Of a stretch of DNA of 58,505 bases, positions 34,397 through 57,684 are shown piece by piece. Every line of letters starts with the position of its first letter. Position 1 is the first letter of the stretch. Below the pieces are notes generated by a model. The model worked only from the letters and a program-made list of their open reading frames with translations. It was not told where the DNA came from and searched no databases. Position numbers and translations under genes: made by a program. The DNA is from a bacterium (GTDB lineage Bacteria; Desulfobacterota; JADFVX01): the NCBI GenBank assembly GCA_032250935.1, contig JAVVFD010000002.1, forward strand, positions 1-58,505. The letters run 5' to 3'.

Positions 34397-34418
34397 ATGG
34401 CGAGGCGACTGTCGCCAT
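34397..34418. promoter_or_regulatory. palindrome ATGGCGA-N8-TCGCCAT, possible activator (UAS) site
   Basis: Perfect 7-bp inverted repeat, about 115 nt (end to start) upstream of the sigma-54-like element at 34533. Confidence 0.25.
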
Positions 34419-34532
34419 AAGGCTATTTCGCGTAGGTAAACTAAGGAGGTCTGATCTCCTGAAATGCCCAAACGGGGTTTTGCGCGCTACCTGCTTGAAA
34501 TTAAATGGACGTTCTCTGTTGGATTTGTTTGT

Positions 34533-34548
34533 TGGTATGGATGTTGCA
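34533..34548 (+). promoter_or_regulatory. candidate sigma-54 (-24/-12) promoter of the NHL-cytochrome operon
   Basis: TGGTAT-GGATG-TTGCA compared with the consensus TGGCAC-N5-TTGCW. GG and GC are at the correct 12-nt offset. It lies 66 nt upstream of ATG 34614. Confidence 0.4.
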
Positions 34549-34613
34549 TTTTTTCTGCATGAGGAATATCTTTATTCAGGCTTGTCAAATGGATAATTAA
34601 CCGGAGGGAGTTT

Positions 34614-37600
34614 ATGGTTCGCAAAAAAAGAAAATATACTGGGTTTATTGCTCTGGCGGCGCTTGTTTTATTTGCCCCGCTCGTGGCGATGGCGTATGAG
34701 CCTCCCTCTTTTGAATATGATTCGTCTTTGCAGCTTTCTTATGCCGGGCGCATGGCTCAGGACTTGGAAGGGAATATATATGTTGCCGATTCCAGGCAGG
34801 GTCGGGTCTATGTTTATGATAAGTACGGGCGCAGTGTTGATACCGTAAACACAATAGCTCAGCCTGCAGCGTTGGCGGCGGGTCCTGCCGGATACATATA
34901 TGTTGCATCACCTCATGGCGTGTATCTCTTGGGTGATAACGGGCAGGCGAGCTCCGTTATCGGTCAGGAAAACTTTGATTCTCCTGTCGACATGGCGATT
35001 GATGCGGCAGGGCAGATTTATCTGCTTGATAGCGGGACTCGTTCGATCAGGGTTTTTACCTCTACAGGTGTTAGTTTGGGAGAATTTGCAGGAGGCTCCG
35101 GTAAATACCCGGTTTCTCTTGCTGTGGGAGTGGATACTGTTTCCGGCGAGGAGTTGGTTTATGTTGGATATTCTGTTGAGTCACTTGATGCCGTTAACAC
35201 GGAAATAGTCATGGTCTTTGACTTGAACTATAATTTGGTCAGATCTTTCGGATCGGCGGTGAAGCTTGCTATATCCGATTCGGGTGCGCCCTCTGGAGAG
35301 GTAGCCAAGGCCGCTGAAATTGCTATCGATGATTTTGGTCGTGTATATCTTGCCGATACCTATGGTAAAAGAGTTGATATCTACAGTGAAAGGGGCGATT
35401 TTCTTGGCGAATATTCTGTCCGTGGCGATAGTTCTCCGGTTAATCTGCTTTTCGATCTGTATGGCAGGCTCTTTGTGTCTCTCTCTTCGGGTAGGATAGA
35501 TATTCTGTCTGTTGATGGTATGAACGTGGCGAATGTTATTCCTACTGCGCCATCGCTTCTTTCTCCGATAGGTGGCATGCGCATTGTATCGGCCACTCCT
35601 GAGCTTGTTGCCGGGAATTCTTCTGATCCCAATATGGATACTCTGGTTTATGAATTTGAGCTTGCATCTGACCCGTCTATGACTAGTAACGTATGGTCTT
35701 CCGGCCCGGTTGCAGAGGGGGGGGATGGATATACTTCGTCCTCTGTCGGCGTAGCTCTGGAGGAAGATCGGGAGTATTTCTGGCGGGTGAGGAGCTTTGA
35801 CGGGACTGAATATTCCCGCTATAGTTATGTTACCAGATTCTTCGTCAATGCAATTAACAGTGCTCCATCGTTTGATTCTTATTCTCCAGAATCCGATAGT
35901 GTTTATGGTTTGTCAGTCGGAGAAACAGTTGGCTTTGCCACAACGGTTAGCGACTCTGACAGGGATAAACTTGCAGTAGCCTGGTTCTTAAACGGTGTTG
36001 AGATTTCCAGCGGTACATCATATTCATATCTGGCGGTAAAAGGCGATGTGGGTGAAAATGTCGTCAAGGTGGTTTTGGCTGACGGTGAGTTTGATGTTGA
36101 GAGGCAGTGGAATGTGACTGTCATGAGACCTAACACGGCTCCTACCTCTCCAGCCCTTAACTCACCTGTCGGTTCTGAGGATGTTCTTAGTGTAAGGCCC
36201 GAACTTTCTATCAGTAACTCCTTTGATGCGGAAGGTGATGCCCTTGTCTATACATTTGAAGTAAGCAGGACAGACAATTTTAGTGACATCGTAGCGACTA
36301 TAAACGATGCTCCTTCCGGGGAAGGTTTTACCATTGCATCGGTGGGCGCAGATCTTGTTGAAAACAGTTTGTATTACTGGAGGGCGAGGGCCTGTGAGAC
36401 TCCTTCGACCGGATCTTTTGTGGCTCAGTACTATTGCAGTAATCCTTCGGCTACGGGCAGTTTTGTTGTAAATACCGTTAATGATCCTGTGGGCGCGCCT
36501 GCTGTCGCCTCTCCTGCTGATGCTGTGCATGTTAATACGCTTGATGGGCAGCTTGTGCTTAGCGTAGATAATGCTATAGATCCAGATTTGAATGACATTG
36601 TTGTCTATGATTTTGAGCTTGCGCTGGATGCGGCCTTTTCGGCTGTGATTTCGCACAATGAAGGGGTTGTTGAGAATGAGACGGGTTCAAGTTCATTTGC
36701 AGTGACAGCGGAATTTGAGGAAAACAGGACCTATTACTGGAGGGCCAGAGCCTCCGATGCGCAGACAGTCAGCGCTTGGGTGTCTACATCCTTTTTTGTT
36801 GATAATTATAATGATGCTCCCACAACTCCTATGGTTGATTCTCCCGTTATGGGGGCGGAGTCGCTTTCATTAAACCCCGTTTTGTCGGTGATTAATTCAG
36901 GGGACCTTAATGGCGATACGCTTTCCTATATCTTTGAAATCGACTCTGCTGAAAATTTCAGTGGCCCTGCAAGGCAGAGATCCGGTCTTATTACCGAAGC
37001 GGATACCATTACATCCTGGGCTACTGTCGCTCCCCTCCTTGATAATACCAGGTATTACTGGAGGGTGAAGGCCAGTGACGGTGTTTCGGAGAGCGGATGG
37101 TCAGTAGTAAATGAGCTTTTTGTTAATCTGTCAAATGACGCCCCCACCGCGCCAGTAGTTAAAGCGCCTTCCGGTGGTGTTGCGGTCAATAGCAATACTC
37201 CTGAGCTGACTGTTTACGCTGCAAACGATTTGGATGCTGATTTGCTGGGGTATAGATATCAGCTTTCAAGAACGGAAAGCTTTTCTTCGGTCGATATTGA
37301 GTCCGGCCTTGAGGGTCTTGCCTGGAATGTTGACGCGCAACTTGAGGAGAACGCCACTTATTACTGGAGATCCAGGGCGATAGATGAGCATGGTCTTTCC
37401 GGCGCATGGTCCGCAAAGGGCCAGTTTATGGTTAATGTAGTAAATGAACACCCCAGCGCTCCAGTGGCTGGTTCTTACACCTATAACTCCGGAGATGAGG
37501 TGCTTCTTCAGATAGGAAGCGCCGTCGACCCCGACGGGGATACTCTGAGCTATTTCGTTGAGCTTTATTCTGACAGGGGTATGACAGCAATTGCATACTC

Positions 37601-37799
37601 TGAAGAAGCTGTTGCCGGGGGCGCGGAAACTATCTCTAATGCCGGCGTCCTTAATCCTGGAGTCTATTACTGGAGGGTAAGGGCCTTTGACGGTGAAGTC
37701 TTCGGAAGCTGGAGCGATACAAGGATAATCAGGGTTAACACTCCCGGACTCACTGGACATGATCGTGCTGATAAGGCCCAAGGGCATAAAAGGTTCTAA
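34614..37799 (+). CDS. secreted NHL-repeat beta-propeller protein with an Ig-like domain and six FN3-like tandem repeats
   Basis: Signal peptide (ALAALVLFAPLVAMA). NHL-like blades: IYVADSRQGRVYVYDKYG, IYLLDSGTRSIRVFTSTG and VYLADTYGKRVDIYSERG. These are followed by six repeats of about 100-120 aa each. Confidence 0.8.
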   Translation: MVRKKRKYTGFIALAALVLFAPLVAMAYEPPSFEYDSSLQLSYAGRMAQDLEGNIYVADSRQGRVYVYDKYGRSVDTVNTIAQPAALAAGPAGYIYVASPHGVYLLGDNGQASSVIGQENFDSPVDMAIDAAGQIYLLDSGTRSIRVFTSTGVSLGEFAGGSGKYPVSLAVGVDTVSGEELVYVGYSVESLDAVNTEIVMVFDLNYNLVRSFGSAVKLAISDSGAPSGEVAKAAEIAIDDFGRVYLADTYGKRVDIYSERGDFLGEYSVRGDSSPVNLLFDLYGRLFVSLSSGRIDILSVDGMNVANVIPTAPSLLSPIGGMRIVSATPELVAGNSSDPNMDTLVYEFELASDPSMTSNVWSSGPVAEGGDGYTSSSVGVALEEDREYFWRVRSFDGTEYSRYSYVTRFFVNAINSAPSFDSYSPESDSVYGLSVGETVGFATTVSDSDRDKLAVAWFLNGVEISSGTSYSYLAVKGDVGENVVKVVLADGEFDVERQWNVTVMRPNTAPTSPALNSPVGSEDVLSVRPELSISNSFDAEGDALVYTFEVSRTDNFSDIVATINDAPSGEGFTIASVGADLVENSLYYWRARACETPSTGSFVAQYYCSNPSATGSFVVNTVNDPVGAPAVASPADAVHVNTLDGQLVLSVDNAIDPDLNDIVVYDFELALDAAFSAVISHNEGVVENETGSSSFAVTAEFEENRTYYWRARASDAQTVSAWVSTSFFVDNYNDAPTTPMVDSPVMGAESLSLNPVLSVINSGDLNGDTLSYIFEIDSAENFSGPARQRSGLITEADTITSWATVAPLLDNTRYYWRVKASDGVSESGWSVVNELFVNLSNDAPTAPVVKAPSGGVAVNSNTPELTVYAANDLDADLLGYRYQLSRTESFSSVDIESGLEGLAWNVDAQLEENATYYWRSRAIDEHGLSGAWSAKGQFMVNVVNEHPSAPVAGSYTYNSGDEVLLQIGSAVDPDGDTLSYFVELYSDRGMTAIAYSEEAVAGGAETISNAGVLNPGVYYWRVRAFDGEVFGSWSDTRIIRVNTPGLTGHDRADKAQGHKRF
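35541..37742 (+). repeat. six protein-level tandem repeats (with one Ig-like insert) in the NHL protein
   Basis: Recurrent signature PEL..(D/N)xDxDxLxYxFE...(E/D)N..YYWR(A/V)RAxD....WS....F.VNxxNxAPxxP. It occurs at aa 310-418, 508-628, 629-738, 739-846, 847-949 and 950-1043. The insert is at aa 419-507. Confidence 0.8.
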
Positions 37800-37810: not shown

Positions 37811-38566
37811 GTGAAAAATAAGACTGAATATGCAAAGAGAAGTTATGGACTGCTTTGGATTATTGCCGGAGTTTTGATTGTGGTTGGGTCGGCCAGACCT
37901 GCTTTAGCTGTAAAGGTTATTGATGTGTCAGCTACCAAGCATAATCTTGGTTCCGGTACTCCTGTAACATCAAACTGGTACTCAACTGATGAGTCTGAGG
38001 TATGCGTCTTCTGTCATACTCCTCATAATGCCATAAGTAATTATCCGCTTTGGAACCAGTATTCAACTACGATGAGCTTTACAGTTTACAGCAGTGGAAC
38101 CCTTACGGCCGGTGTTTATGCTACCGGACTTCTTCCAGCAAACTCCATGTCCAGGCTCTGTCTTTCCTGTCATGAAGGGACTATCGCGATAAACGCTCTT
38201 GCTAATCCCGGCAGTACTGTCGGCAGGCCTGCGATGGCAGGTGGGATCTCCGGTGATCAGTTTTCAGATGTTTTGCCAGCTGGGGCGGGCGCCTATCTGT
38301 CTTCTGACCTTTCTGCCATGCACCCGATCGGTTTCGACTATAACCTCTCCGATGCCGGTGACCCGGAGATTAATGATATTACCACCGGGCCGCTTGCGCA
38401 GGGCTTGAAGTTTATCAAGGGCGCGGGGGGAGAGGATTTTCTAGAATGCGTGACCTGTCACGATCCACACGTTAATGGAGAGGCAACGGGTGATCCGGAC
38501 TATAAATTCTTTTTACGCATACCGAATAAATCAAGTGCACTTTGCTTGGCCTGTCATAATAAGTGA
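37811..38566 (+). CDS. secreted tetrahaem cytochrome c, 'doubled/paired CXXCH' type
   Basis: GTG start behind an AGGAGA RBS, with a signal peptide ending ALA-VK. Motifs are CVFCHTPHN, CLSCH, CVTCHDPH and CLACH. The KHNL...CxFCHTPH context is typical of the paired-CXXCH family seen in Geobacter-type cytochromes. Confidence 0.85.
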   Translation: MKNKTEYAKRSYGLLWIIAGVLIVVGSARPALAVKVIDVSATKHNLGSGTPVTSNWYSTDESEVCVFCHTPHNAISNYPLWNQYSTTMSFTVYSSGTLTAGVYATGLLPANSMSRLCLSCHEGTIAINALANPGSTVGRPAMAGGISGDQFSDVLPAGAGAYLSSDLSAMHPIGFDYNLSDAGDPEINDITTGPLAQGLKFIKGAGGEDFLECVTCHDPHVNGEATGDPDYKFFLRIPNKSSALCLACHNK

Positions 38567-38585: not shown

Positions 38586-41500
38586 TTGAAGATGTTGAAA
38601 AATATGAGAGGGATTGTCTGGGTCGCTTTGATTATCTTCGGAGCAGTCCTTCAGCCTCAAAATTCTGATGCCAGGCTGGTCGGGCCCCATGCTACCAAGG
38701 TATGCGGAGACTGCCATTCAGCTGGCTTTGCCAGCATGTTCAATCAGGCTCCTACCTGTATTACAGCCGCCTGTCATATTAATCAGCTTGTAGAGGCAGA
38801 TGCATCTCAACTCTTCAATTATTCAAGCGCGGGCGGTCCCGTTGGGACATCTCACGCCTGGGGGGTTTCCTACACTGAATCCGGCGCCGCAGCAAAAGGA
38901 CCCTCGACTACGCGCCAGACAAGGTATGGTCCGGGCAATCTCGGCTGTTCCTCTTGCCATTATCCACACTATGCGCTTAACAACATTACAAGCCAGCCAC
39001 TTCTCAAGGTGGATAACAGCTCCGATCAACTATGTCTTGATTGCCACAGGGACAGAAATGTAACGAGCGCATCTCCACCTCCGGCCGGCAAACAGGGAAG
39101 TCATCCAGTAGGTCTTACTATCCCCGGGACTACGGCTTATAACAGTCCTCCTCTGAATCCATATTCCAGTATTTCTGGGTCTGAATTGAAATTAGTCGGC
39201 CCTGGTAGCGATACCGTATCATGCTCTACGTGCCACGGTGTGCATTTTGCCGATTCAAATCCCTATACCGCAGCTACGATGGTTGGACTGAGTACTGTTC
39301 CAGGTGGTCAAGGTGTGCTCCTAAGGAGATACAACGATTCACAGCTCTGTAAAGACTGTCACAGGTATCAGCAGCACGGACCTCTTGCCACACCTGCCAA
39401 ATGGCAGGACTGCAGGAACTGTCACGACCCGCACGATCCGGGCGCCAACTTCAAACTGGTAAGGTTTGACAGCTTCAGCGGTCCCGAAGGGTGGGTACAG
39501 GTCACATTCGACAGCCTTACCTCGAATTTTGCCGAGCGTATTGACGGAAAGCAGGGTATATGCGATGCCTGCCATAGTCTTGAGACGACCGGAGTGTTCC
39601 CAGGGTGGAGTTCGGGTCATTTATCAAAAGGGATTAGCAGGTCTTTGGCCTATCAGGCAGATTGTTTGAACTGTCACTCCCATGCGGAAGGTGACGGAAC
39701 AAGTGTCGGCAGTTTTGCTGCCGGCGGCGCGGCTGCCTGCGGTACATGCCACGGATATCCGCCTATGGCGAACTATTCCGGTCCTCCAAGCGGATATGCT
39801 GGCGGGTATAACGGCGCCGGGTCCTTCGTCAACGAGACCACCTCTCCCCACAGGAAACACGCATCCAGCGAGGGGTATGGCTCAAGGTTTGCGGGAAGCG
39901 GTTCCTACGGCACCGCCTGCAAGGCGTGCCACGGCATGCCGGATGAGTCTACTCACCAAACCAAAGTAGTTTATGGTGACTGGGCCTTCAAGCTATACAC
40001 ATGGCCCGGCGGCTCTCCGACATACGCCCAGTCAGGTGGCAACAAGTGGAAGTGTATAAACAACTACTGCCATAGTGACGGCGCGCCCAATGACGTAATC
40101 AGCTACACTACCCCTACGTGGAGTTCATTGCCAGGCACATTAGATTGTAGCGGATGTCATGCAGCAGCTCCTGTGTCCAACAAGCATACAAAGCATATAG
40201 GCGGCGGCGCAGACTACAGTTTCGGGTGCAGGAACTGCCATGTAAATACGGTTGATGACAACTCGACAATCTCTGCTGCTGGTGTGGCAACTTACCACGT
40301 GGACAGAACAAAGAGCGTCTTTTTCGGCGCCACAGCCGTATCCGGTACATACACGGCGGCAACCAAGGATTGCTCAAATACATATTGTCACGGTAACCTT
40401 GCCGACAACCAGGGTAACAACGCAACGCCTACATTCGGCGCTGCCGGAACGGCAACATGCGGCAGTTGTCACGACCTGGCACCGGCAGGCGATATAGCCA
40501 CTCATACGAAGCACGTCCAAACCTATGATTTCGGTTGTGCTTATTGTCACAACGACCTGGTGACGGCGGCCTTTGATACAAAGAGCACTATTGACAACCA
40601 GGCCATGCATGTAAACAACAGTGAAGACGTCAAGTTCGGTAATGACCTGAAGGGCAGGACCAATGCTGCCGGTACATACACAAAGGCGACGGGCAAGTGT
40701 GACACTATTTACTGCCATAGCGCCGGCACATCGACGCTGGCGGCAAATTTCTTCGTCAACGAGTCGACTATATGGAACAGCGCCACCGTAACTTGTGCCA
40801 GCTGTCACGGTAACTCTGTATACAGCGGCATGACTTCCGCCATGCCGAACTATCCGAATGGTCAGGACGGCAAGGAAAACAGCCATGTGAAGCACGTGGT
40901 TAATAACGGTATAGACTGTATCAGTTGTCATGAAGTGACTCTTGCCACCAATGTGACGATAGGTAATTATACTTCACATGTTAATGCCAAATATAATGTG
41001 GATATCAGTGCTACTTACGGCGGTTCCTACGATACCGGTACTCAGACCTGTACAGGCGTTAGTTGCCATGGTGCCGGTGCGCCTGTATGGGGCGCTACGC
41101 TATCATGCGCAGACTGCCATAACGGAGCAGGCGACGTAGATGACTTTGTTTTCGACAATAAGACTACGGCCACCATTAATCAAACACAGTGGGATAACGT
41201 AGGTCATGGACGTACGTCGGCCTTCCCGTCTGGCAACCCGGCCGCAAACCTGGGATGTGCGAACTGTCATGACAGCGGAGTTTCCCACGGAGTTGCAGGC
41301 AACCCCTTCAGGCTCTTCAGTTCCAACCCCGACCAGCTTTGTAATACTTGTCATGGCGTGGGCGGCGCTGCCACCAAGACCGGTGTCTTTACACACAGTT
41401 CCACTACGACTGACGGCAGACATGATTTCAAGATGAAGTGCGTTGACTGTCATGATCCGCACGGTGACGATAACGCGTTCATGATGCACAGCACCCTGCC

Positions 41501-44500
41501 TCAGCCTAACGGCCAGCCGAACTGGGAGCCATCAAACCAGTACGGTATACCGAACGGCGGAGTTACGTGGGAGAATATCGACTTCCCGAATAATGGCGCT
41601 GCCTTCCTTGCGAGTACATCCGTATCAGCGGCAACTGTCAAGGTATGTAACGTTTGTCACAGCAGGACGACAGATGTAGGGATTACGGATTCAAAGAAGA
41701 GATACAGAAAGGATATGAGCGGCGGTATCACAGAAGCGCACTATGTCGGCAACCAGTGTACAACCTCCTGTCATAAGCATACCGCAGGATTCGAGGGTGT
41801 GAGCTGCGAGGGATGCCACGGCATGCCGCCGGAAACGGGCCTCATGCTTCAGGATCTTGGCGCATACGACGCCAGTCCGACCGGCGAGGGGGCGCACGTC
41901 AAGCACGGTTCGATCTTCATCAGCGGGCCCAGGTGTAACGTATGTCACGATAAATCCATCGGCGGTATGGATCCATCGGGAGCGACTAACACCACGATCG
42001 ATATCAACTTCAAGGCCGACAATCAGTTGGGATCCTATACGACGGGTACTTATGACGCGACAGGCGCGGCGCACAATCCTGCGTATAACGGCAGCGTCAC
42101 CACCGGCGGAACATTTGTATGCTCTAACGTCAAGTGTCACGGTTCGGCCCTGACAAGCGGCAACGGCACCGATACCACTCCGGTTTGGAACAACCTTGCC
42201 ACTGGGGCCTGCGGTAAGTGCCACGGCGCCAAGACCGCGCCATCAACGGCTGCGGACGGCGGAACGGGATATCCCGGCTCGGGCGCCCACCAGAAGCATG
42301 CCGGATGGGGAGCAGGCGAGTACGATATCATGTGCCAGACATGTCATGATACGACGCTTACTACGGCCACCACCTTTGTAGAGAGTCTGCATGTTAACGC
42401 CGATACAGGCAGTACGGGTATAGGCATTGAGCCTGCCTACAATGATACGGCAACTGCGTTCAACTATGTAGACGGAACAAATACATGTGAAAACGCAGAC
42501 TGTCACGGCGAGAACAGCGTAGTCTGGACAGCCGGTGCTCAGACCTGTGATAGCTGCCATAACGGCGCCTCTGATGCGGATAACTTCACATACTCCAACC
42601 TGAGCGGCGTTGTTGCGAAAATAAATAACACCGAGTATACGAACAGCGGCCACGGCAGAACTACTGCTTATCCGGTGTCCGGCAACCCGGGCGCAAATAA
42701 GGGATGTACTGATTGCCATACAGCGACCAAGGACCACAGTACCGGGGCCACATATTTCAGGCTTCTTAATACGGATGATCCGAATACGCTATGCCTCAGC
42801 TGTCATGGTTCGGGCGCCGAACTTACCGGTGCATTCGGCACCATAACCGGTTACCAGGGTCATACATATGACAACCTGAGTACGGCAGGTTACACCAACC
42901 TGACTACATGGCACTTTACACCCAAGTGTATCGACTGCCACGACCCGCATGGTGACGGCAACATATTCATGATGCACAGCAAGGTCTCAGACGAGGGCAG
43001 TTCGACTGTTGCGCCTCTCGGTGTGCCGACCAACTTCCCGAATAACTCGACGGTAATCTTCTTGTCAGTTACAGGCGTTAACTCTTATGATGACGGCGAC
43101 GGCACGGCCAACCTCTGTGTTGTATGCCACGACAGGACGAGCCATAACGGAAACAGCGGATCCCATGCTGGTTATGCTGGGCTGGATTGTCGTGGCTGCC
43201 ATGACCATAAGCTCGGATTTACGCCTTCCGGGTGCGACGGTTGCCACGGTCAGGCCGGTGTGCAGATCTATCCGCCCGACGGACCTAATCTCCCGCTTGA
43301 CTGGGCTGAAGAGGCGGCAACGCCTGCATCGGTCGGCTCTCATGAGGCGCATGTCACCAAGCTGAGTTATGCATGCGCAGAGTGTCACGGCGACGGCAAC
43401 GGACAGGACCAGCCTCATGGTACAGGTAAGACCAATGCATACATGAAGAATCTTACATCATTGCATGGCGCGAACTTCACTCCTAACCTTGCGGGTACCA
43501 GCTCAGTTGTCGATGACACCTGTGCAAATGTTGACTGCCACAGTGGTCGCGCCTACCAGAGGTCATGGATTAACAATCCGACCACCTGCGATGCTTGCCA
43601 CGGTGGAAGGACCTCTGACGGGCTCAACCAGATCAGTACTGGCAGCCACGTGAAGCACACAGGCAACGGTGCAACGGAGTACGACTTCCAGTGTACGCTC
43701 TGTCACGTAGACAACACGGGGAACTTTGATCATTATAGTGTTGCCGACGTGGATCTGAACTTCACAGGACAGGGCACCGGCAGCTCTTATACGAGAGGAA
43801 CAGGATTTGCAACATTCACTACCGGAGCCGAGTGGGGTACATGTACGAGTGCATGCCACGGTGACGGGTTGCCCAGCTCAAGCAGCGGCACTCCGACATG
43901 GGGCGGGTCTTCGCTAACCTGCGAGAACTGCCACTATGCGACGGGGAACAAGGCCTTAATGAGCGCGCCGCATCCGACCCATCTGAATGCCGGAACCTAT
44001 AACTTCGACTGTTTCAATTGCCACGTACAGACTACTACGGACAATACGACGATCAACAACTACACGGCGCATGTTAACGGGAACCGTAACGTCGATTTCG
44101 ACACATACCTGGACAACGATTCGGGGAGCTTTAACGGAACCGCGACCAAGCAATGTCTCAACATCTACTGTCACAGCAACGGTACGGATACCGACGGCGT
44201 GGGACCATTCCCGATGGGGAACTTCACGGCGGACTGGGACGGAGCGACGCAGGGGTGCAAGTACTGCCACGGCGACGAGACCCTGGGCGGCTGGACTTCT
44301 GCAATGCCGAACTACGCCAACGGCGCGCCGAAGGCGAACAGTCACGCCAAGCATGTCAACGGCGGATACCAGTGCATCGACTGCCACGAGGTGACTCTGG
44401 CGACGAACGCCGCGATAGGGAACTATACCGCGCACATCAACGGCAACTACAATATTGACATAAACGCCTCTTATGGTGCGTCCGCAGCCTATACTCCCGG

Positions 44501-49858: not shown

Positions 49859-49886
49859 GGGGGATCGTAAGATCCCCCTTTTTTTT
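49859..49886 (+). terminator. Rho-independent terminator closing the NHL-cytochrome operon
   Basis: GGGGGATC-gtaa-GATCCCCC, an 8-bp GC-rich stem, followed by T8. Confidence 0.85.
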
Positions 49887-50041: not shown

Positions 50042-50617
50042 ATGAATGGAAGTAAAATAAAGTCATTCCTCTTCGCTATAGTGATCGCATTTTTTGCGTC
50101 AGTTATCTCCAACTGGCCCGGAGCATTTGCAAATTTGAGCTTCAAATTAGGCCTTTATGACCAGAAATCGGAAGAAGAAGAGGTTAAAATGGCCGTTAAG
50201 CAATATAATATCAACAGCGCCCAGTTTTACAATACTGCAGGAGAGGATAAGTCCGCTCTGCCGATTATCCCCGCCGCCCCCCTTCTTAAACGGAGACTAT
50301 TCAAGGATATTAATACGCTCAAAAAGGACGGCCTCCTTATCGTTTTTGACAGGGACCGTGACGAGTTTTTAAATATATATTTCCCCAGGAGAGACCTAGC
50401 CGTTGCGGAAACTAGAGAAGTCTGGGCCATGGTGCTTCAGGATGTTAAAACGAGGGAGCCAAGAACGACGGTTAAGGCAGAGAGTGTGAAAGTCCGCTAT
50501 GTCTTAAAAAAGGAAGCTTATTCAAGACTTGGATTGGTCTGGGTTGTCTACGAGGCGGATGTATACCCCGATGATGAAAGAGCTATACCTCCTTTAAATA
50601 TAAAGCCTGTTTTATAG
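50042..50617 (+). CDS. membrane-anchored protein of unknown function (paralogue A)
   Basis: 191 aa with one N-terminal hydrophobic helix (FLFAIVIAFFASVI) and then a soluble alpha/beta-looking domain. It shows weak hand-aligned similarity to the 55033-55566 product. Confidence 0.6.
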   Translation: MNGSKIKSFLFAIVIAFFASVISNWPGAFANLSFKLGLYDQKSEEEEVKMAVKQYNINSAQFYNTAGEDKSALPIIPAAPLLKRRLFKDINTLKKDGLLIVFDRDRDEFLNIYFPRRDLAVAETREVWAMVLQDVKTREPRTTVKAESVKVRYVLKKEAYSRLGLVWVVYEADVYPDDERAIPPLNIKPVL

Positions 50618-50760: not shown

Positions 50761-51777
50761 ATGAAAAAGATTTTCCAATATCTGGGATCAAAAGAATTAC
50801 TAATCTCTACTATTTTGTTCATAGGCCTTTATCTGCTTATAGAGTTATATGGTCTGTTTCGCCTTGGACCAGCCACATATCGGGAGATTTTTCACTCGGC
50901 AGCGATGAAGACTGCCTCTGTCTTAATCCTCATTAATGCACTTCTCCTCCTTCGTCACCTTGTCGGTGCATCAATATGGATGAAAGGGGGGATAACACTA
51001 TTTTCCTTCGGCCTCATAATAATTGTCACCGCCATTTGGGTGAGCATATACACACGATTTGAGGGAAATTTTGTAAGAGACGAGGGCGCCTCTTTTTCAG
51101 CCTTTAAGTCTGATTATATTAAAGAGACTCTCTTTATGCCGAGGTTGGGTGCTCTTCCACAGGTAGGTTTTACCTTTCACAAAATCTCTGTCCAGGCCAA
51201 TGATGAGCTTACGAAATTAGTAAAGCTCAGTGCCGACGTATCTCATGCTGGTAGAACTGTTGATGGAATCGTCGAGCGTACTATAGATTCTGAGAACCTT
51301 CTAATTTCCGACTGGACCTTGATCAGCTTTGTTGACTTCGGCTATTCTACAAGGCTCGTCCTCCATGATTTCACAGAGAAGGAAATAGAGAAACAGAAAA
51401 TATATATGAAGCTGTTTCCAGCAGGTGCAGAAGAACGGGCAGAGGGCATGTATCTGGGTTATTCTTTTTATATCAAGCTATATCCCGACTATATTGACAA
51501 TGATGGCATGCCTGGCACCCGATCGCTTTATCCCGAGAATCCGATGCTCAACTTAAGGATTGTAAGGAATAAAGACATAGTTTTTGACGGGCTGGTCGAG
51601 CCGGGGGGAAAAGTGAAGTTCGATAATATTATAGTACAGTTTCCCGAGGTGAAGATGTGTGTTGAGATGAGGTTCGTCAGGGACTACGGTCTTCCTATAG
51701 TCGCCGTTAGTATCCCCTTTTTCTTTATTGCTATATCAATGTTGCTGCTTGGAAGAAAGAGAGCGCGAATGGCATAA
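50761..51777 (+). CDS. short ResB/CcsB-like membrane protein (divergent)
   Basis: 338 aa with ResB-like topology. N-terminal helices are followed by an FEGNFVRDEGASF block, a soluble middle region and a C-terminal helix after VRDYG. These blocks parallel those in the two longer ResB genes. It lacks the FHISF histidine helix. Confidence 0.55.
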   Translation: MKKIFQYLGSKELLISTILFIGLYLLIELYGLFRLGPATYREIFHSAAMKTASVLILINALLLLRHLVGASIWMKGGITLFSFGLIIIVTAIWVSIYTRFEGNFVRDEGASFSAFKSDYIKETLFMPRLGALPQVGFTFHKISVQANDELTKLVKLSADVSHAGRTVDGIVERTIDSENLLISDWTLISFVDFGYSTRLVLHDFTEKEIEKQKIYMKLFPAGAEERAEGMYLGYSFYIKLYPDYIDNDGMPGTRSLYPENPMLNLRIVRNKDIVFDGLVEPGGKVKFDNIIVQFPEVKMCVEMRFVRDYGLPIVAVSIPFFFIAISMLLLGRKRARMA

Positions 51778-51852: not shown

Positions 51853-53262
51853 GTGATAAAACTAGCTTTTCAAAGATTATCTAACCTATTTAAGTGGTTT
51901 AAAAAACCTAAGACCACTATTTATATTCTTGTTACTCTTTCATTTCTTTATCTTCTTGGTCTGATAATACCGCAGAAAATTTTTTTTGAGACTAAAGCTG
52001 CATATGATGCCTGGATTGGCAAGTCTCCTCTCCTCTTTAATTTTATTGACTGGATAGGCTTTACTGATATATATGTCGCGCCCTTTACTCTCTTTTTATT
52101 AACCCTCTTTTTTATCAATCTTCTTGCCGTTACCATTGACAGGATCCCAATATTGCTCCGCAGGGCATATATCGGATCAGATATAAAATTTCCCTTTGAC
52201 CTTAAATCGCTTCTCCGTTCAAGTAAAGTTAGAGAAATAAATGTAGAAAAAGGGGAAGAAGGTGCGATTAAAAAAAGTATAGAGAACTACTTTATTCGGC
52301 ATAGGTGGCATGTAAAAATAAAAAATGAAGGGAATCTTATACTAGCAGTGCGAAACCGCTTTGCAGTTATAGGCTTCCTCTTCTTTCATATAAGCTTCCT
52401 CTTCTTTCTTGCAGGCGCACTCCTTATCTTTTACAGTCGCTTCAGTGGCCTGATAGTTCTTACGGAAGGAGAGTCCTTTTCCGGCAACATAAGCCGTTTC
52501 AGGAAGGTAAATCGTATGCCCAAGATCATGAAAGATCTCTCGATGCCTAAAATTACCCTTGAAGAAGTGGAGATGAATTATGAGGGAGACAGAAAGACGG
52601 ACCTCTATATTAACCTTGATGTAGAGGATGGGGTCGGAGTTAGAAGAGAATGGGCTGGCGTTAATCAGCCTGTAGTTCTCGGAAACGTTTCTCTGCTTGC
52701 CATGAATGCCGGTGTATCACCTCTTTTCATACTTAGAAGAGTAGATGATAATAGTGAGGTAGACGGGGCCTGGCTCAGTCTTAATGTCCTTGACGGGAAT
52801 ATTGATAGCTTCAGTTTTTCAAATAGCTCTACCATTACCTATACGACATGGTTTTACCCTGACTACCAGATTGAAGATATGTATGAAAGCAGCAAAACTC
52901 CTGAAATCAGGAATCCTGCATTTCACGTTGTCGTTCAGGATAAAGGAACTGTTTTGGCGGAAGCGACTATCCGAAAAGGGCAGGGGATGATATTTGAACC
53001 ATATATTCTGATTTTTGAGGAAATAAGGGCCTGGGGCGAATTGCATCTCGTGAGGGAAGCTGGCCCTCCTTTTCTGGTAGCAGGATTTATCCTCGCAATT
53101 ACAGGTCTCTTTATGAGGCTTATATTCTACCGAAGAGAGATAAGGATTGCTCTTAGTGACGGCAAGCTCTATCTGGCCGGATCCAGTGACCTACACCAGT
53201 TTTCATTTGAAGAAAAGGTTGATAAGATTAAGGCAGAACTTTCAACAGAATTAATGACGTAG
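51853..53262 (+). CDS. ccsB: cytochrome c biogenesis protein ResB/CcsB (System II), copy 1
   Basis: 469 aa with a GTG start. N-terminal helix ending LGLIIPQ, His-containing helix FLFFHISFLFFLAGALLIF, LTEGESF block, large soluble loop and C-terminal helix after VREAGPPF. Confidence 0.8.
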   Translation: MIKLAFQRLSNLFKWFKKPKTTIYILVTLSFLYLLGLIIPQKIFFETKAAYDAWIGKSPLLFNFIDWIGFTDIYVAPFTLFLLTLFFINLLAVTIDRIPILLRRAYIGSDIKFPFDLKSLLRSSKVREINVEKGEEGAIKKSIENYFIRHRWHVKIKNEGNLILAVRNRFAVIGFLFFHISFLFFLAGALLIFYSRFSGLIVLTEGESFSGNISRFRKVNRMPKIMKDLSMPKITLEEVEMNYEGDRKTDLYINLDVEDGVGVRREWAGVNQPVVLGNVSLLAMNAGVSPLFILRRVDDNSEVDGAWLSLNVLDGNIDSFSFSNSSTITYTTWFYPDYQIEDMYESSKTPEIRNPAFHVVVQDKGTVLAEATIRKGQGMIFEPYILIFEEIRAWGELHLVREAGPPFLVAGFILAITGLFMRLIFYRREIRIALSDGKLYLAGSSDLHQFSFEEKVDKIKAELSTELMT

Positions 53263-53350: not shown

Positions 53351-54220
53351 ATGACAACATTTGAAACTATTCTGATTTGGGGCTCAGTTTATCTTTATTC
53401 TCTTGTCGCCTTACTGCTTCTTACCGGCTTTATCTTTAATAAAGACAAAATTGTAAGTTGTGCCGGTTATGTTCTTGTTCCGGCCTTTATTGCTCATACA
53501 ATGGAATTTGCACTCCGTTGGGCAAGAACAGGTTATTTTCCTGCCCTTGGCGACTATGAAAATGCCGTTACGGGGGGATGGTTTGCTATCGCATTTACGC
53601 TTTACTTCTTCTTTAATAAAAAGCCCATTAAAGGGATAGCAGTTGTAACGGTTCCTTTTGTGCTGCTCTTCCTTGGATATGGCATCATGAAGAACCCTGT
53701 CCAACTCCCTCTTGCAATCTCTCTAAAGAGCAGCTGGCTCGTTGTCCATGTCTTGTTTGCACAGATCGCCTTTGGTGCTGCGGCGATAGCAAGCGGAATA
53801 GGAGCTATTTACCTGCTTAAAGACAACCGGAAAAAGAAGGGGATTGAAAGCCCTTTCTTTAATCGTTTTCCTCCATTGCCCGTACTTGAGGAAATTATGT
53901 TCAAGTTTGCCATATACGGGTTCATTTCTATGGCGATAGAGATTGCGGCCGGGTCCATATGGGCGAAGGAGTTATGGGGCGCCTATTGGGGGTGGGACCC
54001 TGTCGAAGTATGGAATCTTACGTCATGGCTCATTTACGGCATCGCAATTCACCTGAAGTTGACACTGAACTGGGAGGGTAGGCGACTTGCCTGGCTTTAC
54101 ATAGCCGCCATGCTAGCAATTATTATCACCTTCTGGGGGGTCGATCTGGTCGTTGAAAAGAGCCACAGTTTTTTCAGGATGGAAGGGGAACCGGAATTAC
54201 GGCAGATGATGGGAAAGTAA
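53351..54220 (+). CDS. ccsA: cytochrome c assembly protein CcsA/ResC (System II haem handling/lyase), copy 1
   Basis: Eight-helix-type membrane protein with the Trp-rich WWD motif WAKELWGAYWGWDPVEVWNLTSW, followed by IHLKL. Confidence 0.88.
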   Translation: MTTFETILIWGSVYLYSLVALLLLTGFIFNKDKIVSCAGYVLVPAFIAHTMEFALRWARTGYFPALGDYENAVTGGWFAIAFTLYFFFNKKPIKGIAVVTVPFVLLFLGYGIMKNPVQLPLAISLKSSWLVVHVLFAQIAFGAAAIASGIGAIYLLKDNRKKKGIESPFFNRFPPLPVLEEIMFKFAIYGFISMAIEIAAGSIWAKELWGAYWGWDPVEVWNLTSWLIYGIAIHLKLTLNWEGRRLAWLYIAAMLAIIITFWGVDLVVEKSHSFFRMEGEPELRQMMGK

Positions 54221-54267
54221 TTACAGATAAAAACAGTCGATCATAGATTTTGAAAGGAGGATTGAGC

Positions 54268-55008
54268 ATGGATAAAAAAACAAGTATAGTAGTATTAATG
54301 ATTATTTCCTTAATGGTGATGCCTGCATTTTTGGCCTTTGCCGGAGATCTGAATAAAGCCCTTGTTAATGCAGCCAACAAGGGAGATAACAAGTCGGTAA
54401 ATAAGTTACTTGCGCAGGGTGCAGATGTGAGGTTGGCGCTTGTCCAGGCAATTGAAGGCGGAGACGCAAATGCGGCCAAAGTGCTTATCGAGAAAGGAGC
54501 AGACCTTGATTTTATAATTGAAGGTGGCGGCAACAACCTCCTCATGATGGCCGCACGGGGCGGGCATGCAGATGCCGTTGGTATTCTTTTAGATAAGGGG
54601 ATGGAAGTAAATGATTTAAATAGTAAAGGGGAAAGCCCTTTGTTTATAGCGACAAACAGTAAAAAAATTGAAGTTGCCAACCTGCTTCTGGAAAGGGGGG
54701 CGGATATCAGCCTGAAAAACAAAAGCGGTTGGTCTCCAATTCATGTAGCGGCCAAGAAATGTCAAACAGATATGGTTAATCTTTTTCTGGATAATGGTGC
54801 CGATATCGAGGATAGAGAGTCGAGAGGATATACGCCCCTAATAATGGCCTCTGAGTGGGACTGCCCCGCAACGGTAAAGTTGCTTTTGGAAAGGGGTGCA
54901 AAGCCCGATGCTCTGACGAAAAAGAAAGAAAGCGCCCTATGGTTTGCACAGCGTGAGAAGTTCGGAGAGGTCCTTAAATTATTGCAACAATATTTACCGA
55001 AGGAATAG
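54268..55008 (+). CDS. periplasmic ankyrin-repeat protein
   Basis: I prefer ATG 54268, with an AGGAGG RBS 7 nt upstream, to the ORF-track start at 54250. Signal peptide VLMIISLMVMPAFLAFA. About six ankyrin repeats (GDNKSVNKLLAQGADV, GHADAVGILLDKGMEVN, G.SPLFIAT, GWSPIHVAA, GYTPLIMAS). Confidence 0.85.
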   Translation: MDKKTSIVVLMIISLMVMPAFLAFAGDLNKALVNAANKGDNKSVNKLLAQGADVRLALVQAIEGGDANAAKVLIEKGADLDFIIEGGGNNLLMMAARGGHADAVGILLDKGMEVNDLNSKGESPLFIATNSKKIEVANLLLERGADISLKNKSGWSPIHVAAKKCQTDMVNLFLDNGADIEDRESRGYTPLIMASEWDCPATVKLLLERGAKPDALTKKKESALWFAQREKFGEVLKLLQQYLPKE

Positions 55009-55032
55009 ATATATTTTTATAAATTAATTATC

Positions 55033-55566
55033 GTGAGTATAGTAAAAAAAACTCTGCTTATGTTTGGCGCTTCATTGGCGCTTTTTTTCATCTTTGCCTT
55101 CATAGATGAGTATGAGAATCTTTTTGGAGCAGGCAAGGACAATCTTCTTATCACTGTCGATCCTTATGAAATAGAAGAGACTCTCAATCGTTATATTGAG
55201 AAACTTTCTGCCGCCTATCTGCATGCCTCTTCCGATGCAATCAAAGAAATTCCGCAGACAGATGATCTCAGAAAAGAGCTTGAAGAGGATATCATGTTCC
55301 TTGAAAGAGATGGAAGAATTCAGCACTACCAGGTAAGAAGTCTGTGGCTTCAAAATGTCAACCAGGTTGCAGCCGATAAGGTGAGGGCTTCCACAAGCGA
55401 ACTCATATCCGTACGGTACCTCGACTCATCGGATAGTTCCGAACTCAGGTCTCTCCCGGAAGCAGTTTTTAACATGAGCTATGTCCTTGAATATGGTAAA
55501 AAGGGATGGGTTGTTTCACGCTATGATGTAGTGAACATTGCAGCAAGTTCCAAAGAGGGTCAATGA
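55033..55566 (+). CDS. membrane-anchored protein of unknown function (paralogue B)
   Basis: 177 aa with one N-terminal helix (LLMFGASLALFFIFAFI). The shared blocks with the 50042 product are YN/YI..A.Y, L+K.L..DI..L.+DG, and YVL......WVV...DV. Its stop overlaps the next start (ATGA). Confidence 0.6.
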   Translation: MSIVKKTLLMFGASLALFFIFAFIDEYENLFGAGKDNLLITVDPYEIEETLNRYIEKLSAAYLHASSDAIKEIPQTDDLRKELEEDIMFLERDGRIQHYQVRSLWLQNVNQVAADKVRASTSELISVRYLDSSDSSELRSLPEAVFNMSYVLEYGKKGWVVSRYDVVNIAASSKEGQ

Positions 55567-56849
55567 AGAAGAGCTTTACTAAAACCGTCTGGGACTCATT
55601 AGGTTCAAGAGATCTATCGGTATTTATTTTTATTATGGGCCTTACTTATTTATTTGTAGGCTATATCTTCTCCACCATTGTCCCTCCCGGTTGGTTTGAT
55701 TCGTTTCAGTCTCTGCTGCCCCTTCTTGTCATGTATACATTGTTCTTCATCAACCTTGTTATATGTGAAATAAAGTGGATACCCGTTGCTATAGGGCGTT
55801 GCCGGCAGCTCGAACTTCCAAGGCCGGATAATCTGAAGCGCTTCGGAAAGGGAATAGGTCTGGATGAATCTTACAGTATAAATTCCTTGAAACAAAGCCT
55901 CTCTAAGAGTTTCTTTCGAATAAAGGAATACGAAGTTGAGGGGAAATCGGTCCTGTTTTACATAAGAGGCCTTACTGCACCACTTGGAAATATAATATTT
56001 CATATCAGTTTTCTATTCCTTCTAGCCGGTATACTTGTTGGGTTACTATATCGAGTTGAGGGTAGTTTTTCTATAATAGAGGGCAGGGGCTTTGATGGAA
56101 CGCCGGGATTTTATAACGATATTAAGGGTTCTCCTCTCTCTGAATTACCTTATATCAAATTTACTCTGGATTCGATAATACCCGAGTTCTGGGAAGGGGA
56201 ACTTCTTTTTACAGACCTTAGGGCCGATTTAACGATGGAGGATGGCTCTAAAGGGAGTTCGTGGCTAAGCGAGGCGATTGGTATAGATGGTGCGTCTGTC
56301 ACCGTGAACGGGATAGGGTACGCAATTAGTTACAATCTTAAAGACAGGGAAGGGAAAGAGCTAAAAAGTGGTACTGTCTCCATGCCTAATCTCTTTGCGC
56401 CCGGCATGGAAGATACTCTCACTATTCCAGGTTATCCCCACAGATTCCTTGTCGCATATTATCCTGACGCCAAGATAAATGGAAGCAATATCTCAAACCT
56501 ATCAATGAACCGAAAAAATCCGGTGATAGGCCTGAGGGTATACAGAGGGAGACTTCCTGTATTTACAGGGCTGCTAAGAGAGGGAGAGGAGGCCGAGTTC
56601 GATAATCATTATATTTCATTTCCTGAAGTGAAATATAGGGGTGATTTTAAATTTGTTAAAGACAGTGGATTCTATTTTATATGGATCGCCTTTGTCATGA
56701 TGATTTCAGGTCTTGTCTGGCGCTTCTTATTCTGTAGAAAAGAGGTTCTTATAATAGAAGATAAAGGTGAATACTCTATTTATCTGAAAAGTGAGTATTT
56801 CCCTCTTCTTTTTGAAAAGAGGATAAGAGAGATGGCAGGTCAATTGTGA
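55563..56849 (+). CDS. ccsB: cytochrome c biogenesis protein ResB/CcsB (System II), copy 2
   Basis: 428 aa. His helix NIIFHISFLFLLAGILVGLLY, IIEGRGF block and a C-terminal helix after VKDSGFYF. The architecture matches copy 1. Confidence 0.8.
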   Translation: MKKSFTKTVWDSLGSRDLSVFIFIMGLTYLFVGYIFSTIVPPGWFDSFQSLLPLLVMYTLFFINLVICEIKWIPVAIGRCRQLELPRPDNLKRFGKGIGLDESYSINSLKQSLSKSFFRIKEYEVEGKSVLFYIRGLTAPLGNIIFHISFLFLLAGILVGLLYRVEGSFSIIEGRGFDGTPGFYNDIKGSPLSELPYIKFTLDSIIPEFWEGELLFTDLRADLTMEDGSKGSSWLSEAIGIDGASVTVNGIGYAISYNLKDREGKELKSGTVSMPNLFAPGMEDTLTIPGYPHRFLVAYYPDAKINGSNISNLSMNRKNPVIGLRVYRGRLPVFTGLLREGEEAEFDNHYISFPEVKYRGDFKFVKDSGFYFIWIAFVMMISGLVWRFLFCRKEVLIIEDKGEYSIYLKSEYFPLLFEKRIREMAGQL

Positions 56850-56862
56850 GGTATAGAAGGCA

Positions 56863-57684
56863 ATGGTGATGAATAGTGAGTTTATATGTCTTTTAATGGC
56901 GGGAATAGCCTATTGGGGCGCCATAATCTTGTCATTTCGGGAGGCATCAAGGCGCATAGCCCTCTACTTTATTATGCCTGCTGCACTGATAGTGCATCTT
57001 GCCTCGGCCATCATCCGTTGGGTAGCAATCGGTCATCCTCCAGTATTCGGCACCTATGAAGCGACACTTGCCGCTTCGTGGTTCATGCCCCTGACGGCGC
57101 TTCTGGCCGTCAAAAGGCATCGACAAATAGAACTCATTATCCCATGGACTGCGCTCTTTGCTCTTTTGCATCTGGCCTATGGCTTCACCTTCAATACGGC
57201 CCGTATCCCAATTACCATATCAGAGCAGAGCATATGGGTTGATCTCCATGCTATGGCGGCATGGCTTGCCTACGGGGAGCTTTTCATATCCTTTTTGCTT
57301 TCCCTGATGTTGCTTATGAAGACTGGCGGGGCGACGATCTTGAAAGGTCTGCCGTCAGAAGAGCTGATGGATGAACTGATCTTCAAATACCTTGTTCTGG
57401 GCTTTATCTTCCATACCCTCATGTTTGCCCTCGGTTCATATTATTCTTCCACCCTCTTCGGCAAGTGGTGGACATGGGACCCTGTAGATACGCTCTTCAT
57501 GATCTCATGGATAATATTCGGCCTCATTGTACATATGCGCCTCTTCTACGGCTGGAAGAATGAGCGGATGGCAAAGCTTGTTATTATCGGCATGATAACG
57601 ATCTTCATAGGTTACTGGTCCCTCGTCTATATCCCCTGGGCTACATATCACATATTTGATATCGGCCTCAAGATGCACGGGTAA
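56863..57684 (+). CDS. ccsA: cytochrome c assembly protein CcsA/ResC, copy 2 (divergent WWD motif)
   Basis: Polytopic membrane protein. Its WWD region reads LFGKWWTWDPVDTLFMISW, followed by VHMRL. 273 aa. Confidence 0.85.
   Translation: MVMNSEFICLLMAGIAYWGAIILSFREASRRIALYFIMPAALIVHLASAIIRWVAIGHPPVFGTYEATLAASWFMPLTALLAVKRHRQIELIIPWTALFALLHLAYGFTFNTARIPITISEQSIWVDLHAMAAWLAYGELFISFLLSLMLLMKTGGATILKGLPSEELMDELIFKYLVLGFIFHTLMFALGSYYSSTLFGKWWTWDPVDTLFMISWIIFGLIVHMRLFYGWKNERMAKLVIIGMITIFIGYWSLVYIPWATYHIFDIGLKMHG

Follow-up and report, generated by a model that had tools for sequence, protein, structure and literature searches.

We have analyzed a stretch of 58,505 nucleotides, called here the window, from a bacterium of the Desulfobacterota lineage JADFVX01 (GenBank assembly GCA_032250935.1, contig JAVVFD010000002.1, positions 1 to 58,505 of the forward strand). 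We found in it an operon that codes for a relative of the nanowire protein OmcE, a secreted NHL beta-propeller protein and two large cytochromes with 60 and 15 haem sites, followed by a second unit with genes of System II, the ResB/CcsA pathway of haem attachment. On balance, we consider this locus to be a variant of the OmcE-type nanowire cluster in which the outer-membrane barrel is missing, a giant cytochrome is present and maturation is probably provided by the cluster itself. The electron-transfer ideas used here each have published parallels, namely the OmcE clusters, the uet cluster with its NHL proteins and CcsAB, the giant cytochromes and the dedicated haem lyases.

Organization of the cytochrome operon

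The first unit comprises the following features:

34533-34548, + strand: sigma-54-type promoter TGGTATGGATGTTGCA (GG-N10-GC), 66 nt upstream of the NHL gene; predicted function
34614-37799, + strand: secreted protein of 1061 amino acids (aa) with an NHL six-blade beta-propeller and about seven Ig/FN3-like beta-sandwich domains (Pfam, AlphaFold, Foldseek)
37811-38566, + strand: OmcE-family tetrahaem cytochrome (251 aa), putative nanowire subunit (phmmer against PDB)
38586-45767, + strand: 60-haem cytochrome of the CxxxxCH/CxxCH family (2391-2393 aa; motif count, Pfam)
45771-49826, + strand: 15-haem cytochrome (1351 or 1307 aa) with a 450-aa non-haem, Gly/Thr-rich N-terminal region (motif count, Pfam)
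49859-49886, + strand: intrinsic terminator of the cytochrome operon, GGGGGATCGTAAGATCCCCC followed by T8, with an 8-bp GC-rich stem and a 4-nt loop

The four open reading frames (ORFs; 1061, 251, 2393 and 1351 aa) are separated by gaps of 11, 19 and 3 nt. In a heuristic reading, one hydrophobic segment lies near the N-terminus of each product, with a cleavage site of the Ala-X-Ala type behind it, and inspection of the four N-termini revealed no lipobox. An earlier note on this DNA, made from the letters alone, had described four co-directional genes for secreted proteins that end at a strong terminator, and the ORF coordinates, the export signals and the stem followed by T8 bear this out. The position at which it began the locus, 34397, is not the start of a gene; the four-gene set is real and its first gene begins at 34614. 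Counting haem sites from each CH dipeptide back to the preceding Cys, we found exactly 79 CXnCH sites in the three cytochromes (4 + 60 + 15), where about 79 had been proposed. The overall picture of co-transcribed genes for secreted multihaem cytochromes and an NHL/Ig-domain protein, followed by a separate System II unit, is thus supported.

A tetrahaem cytochrome of the OmcE family

The tetrahaem protein matched, along its full length, the OmcE filament (PDB 7TFS) in a phmmer search with an E-value of 4.2e-27 (98 bits), residues 34-251 aligning with 21-232, and the 16-chain entry 9YUQ with 5.2e-26; we take the latter to be the Desulfuromonas soudanensis OmcE bundle described in bioRxiv 10.1101/2025.10.22.684050. 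It contains four CXXCH motifs and eight His, and all eight haem-ligating His align with His in OmcE. The four motifs and H44, H72, H171 and H220 are invariant among five orthologues, H44 being located within a TxHNL motif near the mature N-terminus. In OmcE, one haem of the subunit requires a His of the neighbouring subunit (bioRxiv 10.1101/2025.10.22.684050); four haems with eight His represent the polymerising pattern. By analogy, the protein probably polymerises by providing one His to a haem of its neighbour, giving an insulated chain of haems. An unusually long haem wire had been proposed before for this locus; such a wire would more probably be the polymer of the OmcE-like subunit than the giant polypeptide alone.

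A scan of metagenomes with the alignment of OmcE-like proteins gave at least 440 loci. The commonest form, found in 42 of 80 metagenome hits, was an OmcE-like domain within a protein of 560-930 aa with about 11 haems. Most of these loci (e.g., L111, L113, L116, L124, L148 and L166; related loci are numbered here with the prefix L) show an NHL gene immediately upstream, and L148 and L166 have a ccsA-like gene on the downstream side. Their resemblance to the undecahaem uet cluster suggests a relationship between UetJ-type cytochromes and OmcE. A rough neighbour-joining tree, built without bootstrap, weakly separated the OmcE-like proteins linked to giant cytochromes (except that of L099) from those linked to barrels.

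Giant cytochromes

The product of the third gene has 60 haem sites (46 CX2CH, 2 CX3CH, 11 CX4CH and 1 CX8CH) that use all of its 120 Cys, and it contains 127 His. Pfam recognized in it seven Cytochrome_C7, four MtrC/MtrF domain II/IV and five GSu_C4xC__C2xCH modules. The match to PF09698 (E-value 1.1e-13, in five stretches) bears out its membership in the CxxxxCH/CxxCH family. Homologues of 1400-4100 aa, annotated as 'CxxxxCH/CxxCH domain c-type cytochrome', are found in Geobacter, Geotalea, Anaeromyxobacter, Deferrisoma and many metagenome-assembled genomes (MAGs), with the same modular build (TIGR01904/PF09698; Geobacter, Anaeromyxobacter and Deferrisoma). None of the clusters that contain these cytochromes has been functionally characterised in the literature searched. 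In close relatives the giants carry 67-80 haem sites, and L086 reaches a total of about 97 in its three proteins. The length of the giant differs among the window, L085, L086 and L084 (2393, 3099, 3545 and 3723 aa, with 60 to 80 haem sites) beside housekeeping genes that are more than 90% identical, which indicates frequent gain and loss of haem modules. The protein had no match among PDB sequences, and BLAST against itself at 1e-5 detected no internal repeats, its modules being too diverged. Its size alone is not new, since a survey of Desulfuromonadia reported up to 87 haem motifs per polypeptide; single-chain 'long wires' that would exceed the width of the periplasm were also predicted there (PMC11492766).

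The 15-haem cytochrome contains 14 CX2CH and one CX4CH sites. Its Pfam domains (MtrC/MtrF II/IV, C7 and c554) are confined to the C-terminal part, and TIGR01904 scored 29 bits, with a cut-off of 27. The N-terminal 450 aa matched nothing in Pfam or PDB and had one partial homologue. Translation may start at the ATG at 45903 (ribosome-binding site AGGGAG, 1307 aa) instead of the GTG at 45771, and the orthologue in L086, of 1305 aa, has a Met at the position homologous to this ATG.

A propeller on a stalk

The first gene of the operon codes for a protein in which Pfam recognizes NHL, SGL and Ig_Rha78A_N/PhoD_N-type domains. Its propeller (residues about 36-290) matches the NHL structures of TRIM71 and Thin. 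The AlphaFold model is all-beta, with a predicted local distance difference test (pLDDT) score of 81.8, and shows about seven Ig/FN3-like sandwiches past the propeller. The best Foldseek matches were strings of Ig/FN3 domains and ectodomains in which a propeller is combined with FN3 domains (contactin, ROS1/Sevenless, GhpA), and the modelled protein looks like an extracellular stalk protein. Full-length homologues are rare, only five being found among 5.8 billion proteins, and exact-sequence look-up of the window protein and of P0039 returned no record. The N-terminus, MVRKKRKYTGFIALAALVLFAPLVAMA/YEPP, has no Cys and therefore is not that of a lipoprotein; the same applies to L085, L003, L096 and L102.

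NHL-like and OmcE-like ORFs abut in 51 of the 59 metagenome loci with enough flanking sequence, so that the NHL protein and the small cytochrome form a widespread two-gene module, of whose propeller partner the 1061-aa protein represents the long form. The window protein is 71% and 69% identical to those of its relatives, compared with 94% and 91% for PtsI. Outer-surface cytochromes have been reported to be fast-evolving (PMC12977616), and the faster divergence of the NHL protein fits this behaviour.

A probable nanowire cluster without the barrel

The published omcE cluster codes for OmcE, two multihaem cytochromes, two beta-propeller lipoproteins and a large beta-barrel, and is located beside resB/ccsB (bioRxiv 10.1101/2025.10.22.684050). 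The window shares with this cluster, as known in Geobacter sulfurreducens and Desulfuromonas soudanensis, the tetrahaem subunit, whose four CXXCH are accompanied by four additional His, the adjoining beta-propeller gene, two further multihaem cytochromes and the resB/ccs genes alongside. It differs in several ways. There is no large outer-membrane barrel, and the place behind the OmcE-like gene, occupied in L119, L121 and L144 by a haem-free barrel-like ORF (at least 450 aa, ending in F, Y or W; 615 aa with the C-terminus ...DYDLRF in L121), is taken by the 60-haem gene. The propeller has a signal of the signal-peptidase-I type instead of a lipobox and is fused to the Ig/FN3 domains, the companion cytochromes are much larger than the published ones, and there are two divergent ResB/CcsA pairs with accessory genes, including a rare NTF2-like family.

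The same arrangement was found elsewhere. The NHL-Ig, OmcE-like and giant genes follow each other in the order of the window in L085, L003, L088, L096 and L102, and L099 has the OmcE-like gene first. L086 starts within the end of the NHL gene and is then identical in order through the second small anchored protein of the maturation unit described below. L002, which ends in the NHL gene, and L084, which begins with the giant, come from the same sample and probably belong together. The MAG with the nearest PtsI (57% identical), 'Deltaproteobacteria bacterium S146_73', had no such cluster in a scan with two peptide patterns, a procedure that may miss closer genomes.

The porin-cytochrome conduits MtrCAB and PccBCD/OmaB-OmbB-OmcB are also devoted to multihaem electron transfer across or beyond the envelope, and MtrC/MtrF II/IV-type modules appear in both large cytochromes of the window. 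However, we found here neither a porin nor the periplasmic deca- or octahaem insert protein nor a lipoprotein cytochrome. Pfam detected no barrel, quinol dehydrogenase or secretion gene among the window ORFs scanned (from 485-2152 to 57982-58386), in agreement with the earlier view that the locus is set apart from the Mtr and Pcc types by the absence of porin, lipobox and quinol dehydrogenase. The description of the module as 'self-contained' is not borne out by the window, which encodes neither an outer-membrane route nor a connection with the quinone pool. Only 119 nt of the window remain past the gene at 57982-58386, so the cluster may be cut off and a barrel farther away is possible. The hematite-binding motif ([ST]-hydrophobic-[ST]-P-[ST]) was not found in any of the four proteins of the operon.

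These features could also describe a periplasmic electron store, or a wire spanning the periplasm. In this reading all four products would remain periplasmic, the giants would serve as capacitors or bridges, and the tetrahaem protein would be a soluble adaptor. The signal peptides are only of the Sec type, neither the window nor its relatives show barrel, lipobox or secretion genes, Cytochrome_C7-type modules are present in the giant, and surveys have offered electron storage as one of the explanations for proteins that are very rich in haem (PMC11492766). However, the tetrahaem protein retains all the ligands of the OmcE filament including the N-terminal His, the NHL-Ig protein resembles a stalk outside the cell and diverges among relatives (69-71% identity, against 91-94% for PtsI) in the way typical of outer-surface cytochromes (PMC12977616), and the cytochromes contain MtrC/MtrF-type modules. 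We therefore regard a periplasmic store as unlikely and prefer the OmcE-type nanowire cluster.

The maturation unit

Behind the terminator, the second unit contains the following genes:

50042-50617, + strand: membrane-anchored periplasmic NTF2-like protein, copy 1 (191 aa; no Pfam or NCBIfam match; AlphaFold, Foldseek)
50761-51777, + strand: degenerate ResB-like membrane protein (338 aa; 28% identical to ResB2 by BLAST, E-value 6e-19; no Pfam match)
51853-53262, + strand: ResB/CcsB copy 1 (469 aa; Pfam ResB, E-value 3.6e-32, full length; transmembrane His in FHISF)
53351-54220, + strand: CcsA copy 1 (289 aa; Pfam Cytochrom_C_asm, E-value 2e-34; WGAYWGWD; His 49/133/234/272)
54250-55008, + strand: periplasmic ankyrin-repeat protein (252 aa; Pfam Ank_2, E-value 4.7e-45; signal peptide; orthologue in L086)
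55033-55566, + strand: membrane-anchored NTF2-like protein, copy 2 (177 aa; family profile, E-value 1.7e-18, full length)
55563-56849, + strand: ResB/CcsB copy 2 (428 aa; Pfam ResB, E-value 2.2e-23; transmembrane His in FHISF)
56863-57684, + strand: CcsA copy 2 (273 aa; Pfam, E-value 1.5e-24; WWTWD; His 45/129/224/263)
57982-58386, + strand: conserved membrane protein with three transmembrane segments (134 aa), member of the cluster (orthologues 46-47% identical in L084 and L088)

Eight genes had been described downstream of the cytochromes and all eight are present; a ninth, at 57982-58386, also belongs to the cluster as indicated by its orthologues in L084 and L088. Pfam confirmed two of the three proposed ResB-like proteins, the two CcsA and the ankyrin protein, while the third ResB-like protein was recognized by BLAST only. 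As expected for System II, the WWD segment and its flanking His are present in the two CcsA, and the transmembrane His in the two ResB. The 338-aa protein has neither the N-terminal part nor the transmembrane His (FH[IV]SF) of all the bona fide ResB compared, and its orthologue in L086, 50% identical, is likewise devoid of both. The two copies are only 29% (CcsA) and 24% (ResB) identical to each other and are thus old paralogues; the duplication that had been noted in the maturation machinery is not a recent one. With 158.7 bits (CcsA1) and 101.6 bits (CcsA2), neither CcsA reaches the cut-off of 187.6 bits that NCBIfam sets for the housekeeping CcsB equivalog, TIGR03144. A genome scan for ResB1 gave 71 pattern matches, none of them a relative.

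In line with the earlier note, the linkage of giant and synthase is conserved: ResB/CcsA genes lie directly downstream of giant CX4CH cytochromes in all seven loci with downstream sequence (the window, L084, L085, where the contig ends after ResB, L086, L087, L088, and L169 from Anaeromyxobacter oryzae, AP025591.1). Orthologues of CcsA1 (33-77% identity) are located behind the giants of L084, L086, L087, L088 and L169. In the relatives, the ccs genes are often followed by one or two genes for B12-binding radical SAM proteins and by genes for a Tll0287-like haem protein and for TPR or PD40 propeller proteins; the window does not extend far enough to show them.

The neighbouring cytochromes contain 15 non-CXXCH sites (CX3CH, CX4CH and CX8CH). 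Wolinella has System II lyases, NrfI and CcsA1, that are dedicated to CXXCK and CX15CH sites (PMC6976685). Given this precedent and the linkage in seven of seven loci, the ccs genes of the cluster are best read as a dedicated maturation system for the giants. As in the window, the extra CcsA-type synthases of Wolinella succinogenes are found beside a cytochrome with non-CXXCH haem sites. However, those enzymes are fused CcsBA proteins with proven substrates (the CXXCK of NrfA and the CX15CH of MccA), whereas in the window ResB and CcsA are separate, the specificity is presumed from co-location, the sites are CX3CH, CX4CH and CX8CH, and there are novel partners (the NTF2-like anchored protein and the ResB without His).

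The same genes might instead be the general-purpose System II of the genome, merely adjoining the cytochrome operon as happens in Desulfuromonadia, where published synteny puts housekeeping resB/ccsB beside the omcE clusters. The terminator at 49859-49886 parts the two units, and the remaining 34 kb of the window contain no other ccs or ccm gene. Such a role is difficult to reconcile with two deeply diverged complete pairs accompanied by a degenerate ResB, with CcsA proteins that both fall under the equivalog cut-off, with orthologues of the CcsA1 type that are found behind giant CX4CH cytochromes in unrelated genomic contexts and also in a different phylum, and with the rare accessory families that travel along. 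We find this explanation very doubtful, and dedicated maturation remains our best reading.

Accessory proteins

The two small anchored proteins were proposed to be paralogous. Their pairwise similarity is marginal (24%, E-value 0.003), but a profile of 46 homologues of copy 1 retrieved copy 2 with an E-value of 1.7e-18, which makes them true paralogues. The family is rare, with only 53 clusters among 1.84 billion representative proteins. It is also found behind ResB in L084, L085 and L088, and in these clusters it is always beside ResB. The AlphaFold model of copy 1 (pLDDT 94.7, predicted template modelling score 0.86) consists of a transmembrane helix and an NTF2-like cone. The best structural matches by Foldseek were the intermembrane-space domain of ARC6/PARC6 (TM-score 0.72), the C-terminal domain of Tim44, and VirB8, all of them membrane-tethered modules that bind proteins or peptides. 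From this modelled fold, the anchored proteins may hold the apocytochrome or organise the synthase. The 134-aa protein with three transmembrane segments had no significant family match in Pfam or NCBIfam.

Points that weigh against the nanowire cluster

Several observations do not favour the interpretation that we prefer. Homology to OmcE is no proof of polymerisation. Neither a barrel nor a type II secretion gene nor any other means of export was found in the window or in the 5-10 kb downstream in L084, L085, L086 and L088, which leaves unexplained how a filament, or a cytochrome of 250 kDa, would leave the periplasm. The profile of the OmcE-like proteins matched the first 260 residues of the giants of the window, L084 and L086 with only about 15 bits (E-value about 3e-5). 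In the giant of the window this weak match covers residues 39-259 approximately (about 38700-39360) and aligns with the C-terminal half of OmcE; it could represent a module to which the filament docks, or noise from the haem motifs. The 'private' character of the maturation is deduced from the genes of this window alone, and the synteny analysis of Desulfuromonadia treats the flanking resB/ccsB as conserved housekeeping genes (bioRxiv 10.1101/2025.10.22.684050). Finally, the small cytochrome of A. oryzae has five haems and is barely OmcE-like, so that the module of giant plus Ccs can exist without an OmcE subunit.

The A. oryzae locus (L169, AP025591.1, 6672573-6700462) belongs to the complete genome of a cultured member of the Myxococcota, and its giant has 51 haems. 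It resembles the window in the order of an NHL/PKD protein, a small cytochrome, the giant, ResB and CcsA. It differs in having a B12-radical SAM gene, a PD40 propeller lipoprotein and a single Ccs pair.

Direction of electron flow

In the uet cluster of Ca. Tenderia electrophaga (uetA-J with ccsAB, nrfG and batABD), linked to electron uptake (bioRxiv 10.1101/2022.05.06.490989), NHL propellers are also encoded beside a multihaem cytochrome, CcsA and CcsB are carried by the cluster, there is a repeat partner (the TPR protein NrfG there, the ankyrin protein in the window), and Ccs is proposed in both cases to mature the cytochromes of its own cluster. Uet has, in addition, an undecahaem cytochrome, triheme c7 proteins, a cupredoxin, a peptidylprolyl isomerase and a barrel (UetC), but no giant CX4CH cytochrome and one Ccs pair only.

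This parallel raises the alternative that the locus serves electron uptake (electrotrophy or Fe(II) oxidation) or syntrophic transfer between cells instead of mineral reduction, an alternative that concerns the direction only and is compatible with the architecture described. Besides the uet cluster, with its NHL proteins, undecahaem cytochrome and own CcsAB, the commonest metagenomic form is an OmcE-domain protein of about 11 haems with an adjoining NHL gene, in two cases with ccsA-like genes nearby, and L088 possibly comes from H2-rich serpentinising groundwater. But sequence fixes no direction, the OmcE of Geobacter is tied to the reduction of Fe(III) oxide (PMC12307469), and the window offers no context of carbon fixation or oxidases. 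We see uptake or syntrophic transfer as somewhat unlikely. L088 corresponds to the Joint Genome Institute metagenome 3300045950, an identifier that appears in three papers on serpentinising groundwater, two of which deal with the Samail Ophiolite in Oman. If the sample is from there, this type of cluster would be present in H2-rich, acceptor-poor, hyperalkaline subsurface water.

Regulation

The intergenic region between ptsI and the NHL gene (34208-34613) is a conserved promoter region. The putative promoter TGGTATGGATGTTGCA is the sole match in the window to TGGYAYN5TTGCW, and both syntenic relatives, L085 and L002, have exactly this sequence in an intergenic region whose identity is otherwise 79%. 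Upstream of it there are conserved blocks, e.g., CTGAAATGCCCAAACGGGGTTTTGCG and GGCTATTTCGCGTAGG, which could be activator sites. An ORF of 87 aa (34333-34596) that overlaps these blocks is unlikely to be a real gene. The window itself has no gene for a sigma-54 activator; L087 carries a Sigma54_activat gene, and L096 and L102 have, just upstream, an ORF with an activator-like C-terminus. Cyclic-dinucleotide riboswitches are known ahead of some Geobacter cytochrome genes. Rfam gave no match at the gathering threshold over the whole window, which argues against a riboswitch such as the cyclic-dinucleotide type; the promoter region had only a sub-threshold match to CRISPR-DR that we attribute to chance.

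Other genes of the window

The other 34 kb, approximately, contain housekeeping genes (ubiB/ubiE, sulfate-activation genes, tsaD, gltX, hpf-ptsN-hprK-HPr-ptsI) and two-component regulators. At 27222-27803, a small multihaem cytochrome resembling c554 (193 aa) is located beside a response regulator of the AraC type and a hybrid receiver-histidine kinase (24874-25611 and 25944-27080). Kinase and cytochrome keep the same place in the relatives L001 and L002, and a regulatory tie between this region and the big cluster is possible. On the - strand, at 17755-22196, two adjoining genes have an APS (adenosine phosphosulfate) kinase domain, one in a fusion with ATP sulfurylase/PUA of the sat-cysC type and the other in a fusion with the GTPase CysN. 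A CysD-like gene comes next, completing an ordinary but doubled sulfate-activation set. The cytochrome genes show a rise in GC content that we considered as a sign of horizontal transfer. We rejected it, as the GC content at third codon positions is within the range of the housekeeping genes and the rise is at second positions, i.e., a matter of amino-acid composition.

A model of the cluster and its significance

We propose that the first operon would be transcribed from the sigma-54-type promoter at 34533 to the terminator at 49859-49886 and that its four products would be exported through Sec. The OmcE-like subunit would then assemble into the filament. The NHL propeller, on its stalk of about seven Ig/FN3 domains, probably helps to assemble, anchor or space this filament. 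The 60-haem and 15-haem cytochromes would probably pass electrons between periplasmic carriers and the filament, or form its base or tip. The second operon, with two ResB/CcsA pairs, the ResB-like protein without His, two NTF2-like proteins, the ankyrin protein and the small membrane protein, probably allows the maturation of very large apoproteins, including their 15 non-CXXCH sites. A more specific version, which we judge improbable as it stands, is that a cytochrome of 60-80 haems in the stead of the barrel is an envelope-spanning root or tip for the OmcE-like polymer, held by the stalked propeller, and that the NTF2-like, His-less ResB and ankyrin/TPR proteins constitute a novel group of accessory factors of System II, with which a synthase could act processively along the 60-80 sites of an apoprotein, CX4CH included.

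It had been suggested that the combination of genes may be uncharacterised. This is correct in so far as the conserved combination was not found in the literature searched; the pairing with NHL proteins, the CcsAB genes within clusters and cytochromes with up to 87 haem motifs have all been published. A literature search for CX4CH together with ResB/CcsB, radical SAM and multihaem found nothing, a weak sign of novelty given its incomplete coverage. With the same caution, the conserved combination, the absent barrel and the accessory families appear to be undescribed.

The field openly acknowledges a gap as to how nanowires start, how they are anchored and how they are connected with the cell (PMC12307469; bioRxiv 10.1101/2025.10.22.684050). 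The conserved subtype described here supplies concrete candidates for these roles, namely the giant cytochrome that takes the place of the barrel and the stalked propeller protein. The locus is also a testable case for the maturation by System II of very long apocytochromes with CX4CH sites, and it includes a rare and unstudied family of NTF2-like partners. Since a similar module, with a small cytochrome of five haems, is present in the cultured Anaeromyxobacter oryzae, genetics would be possible in principle.

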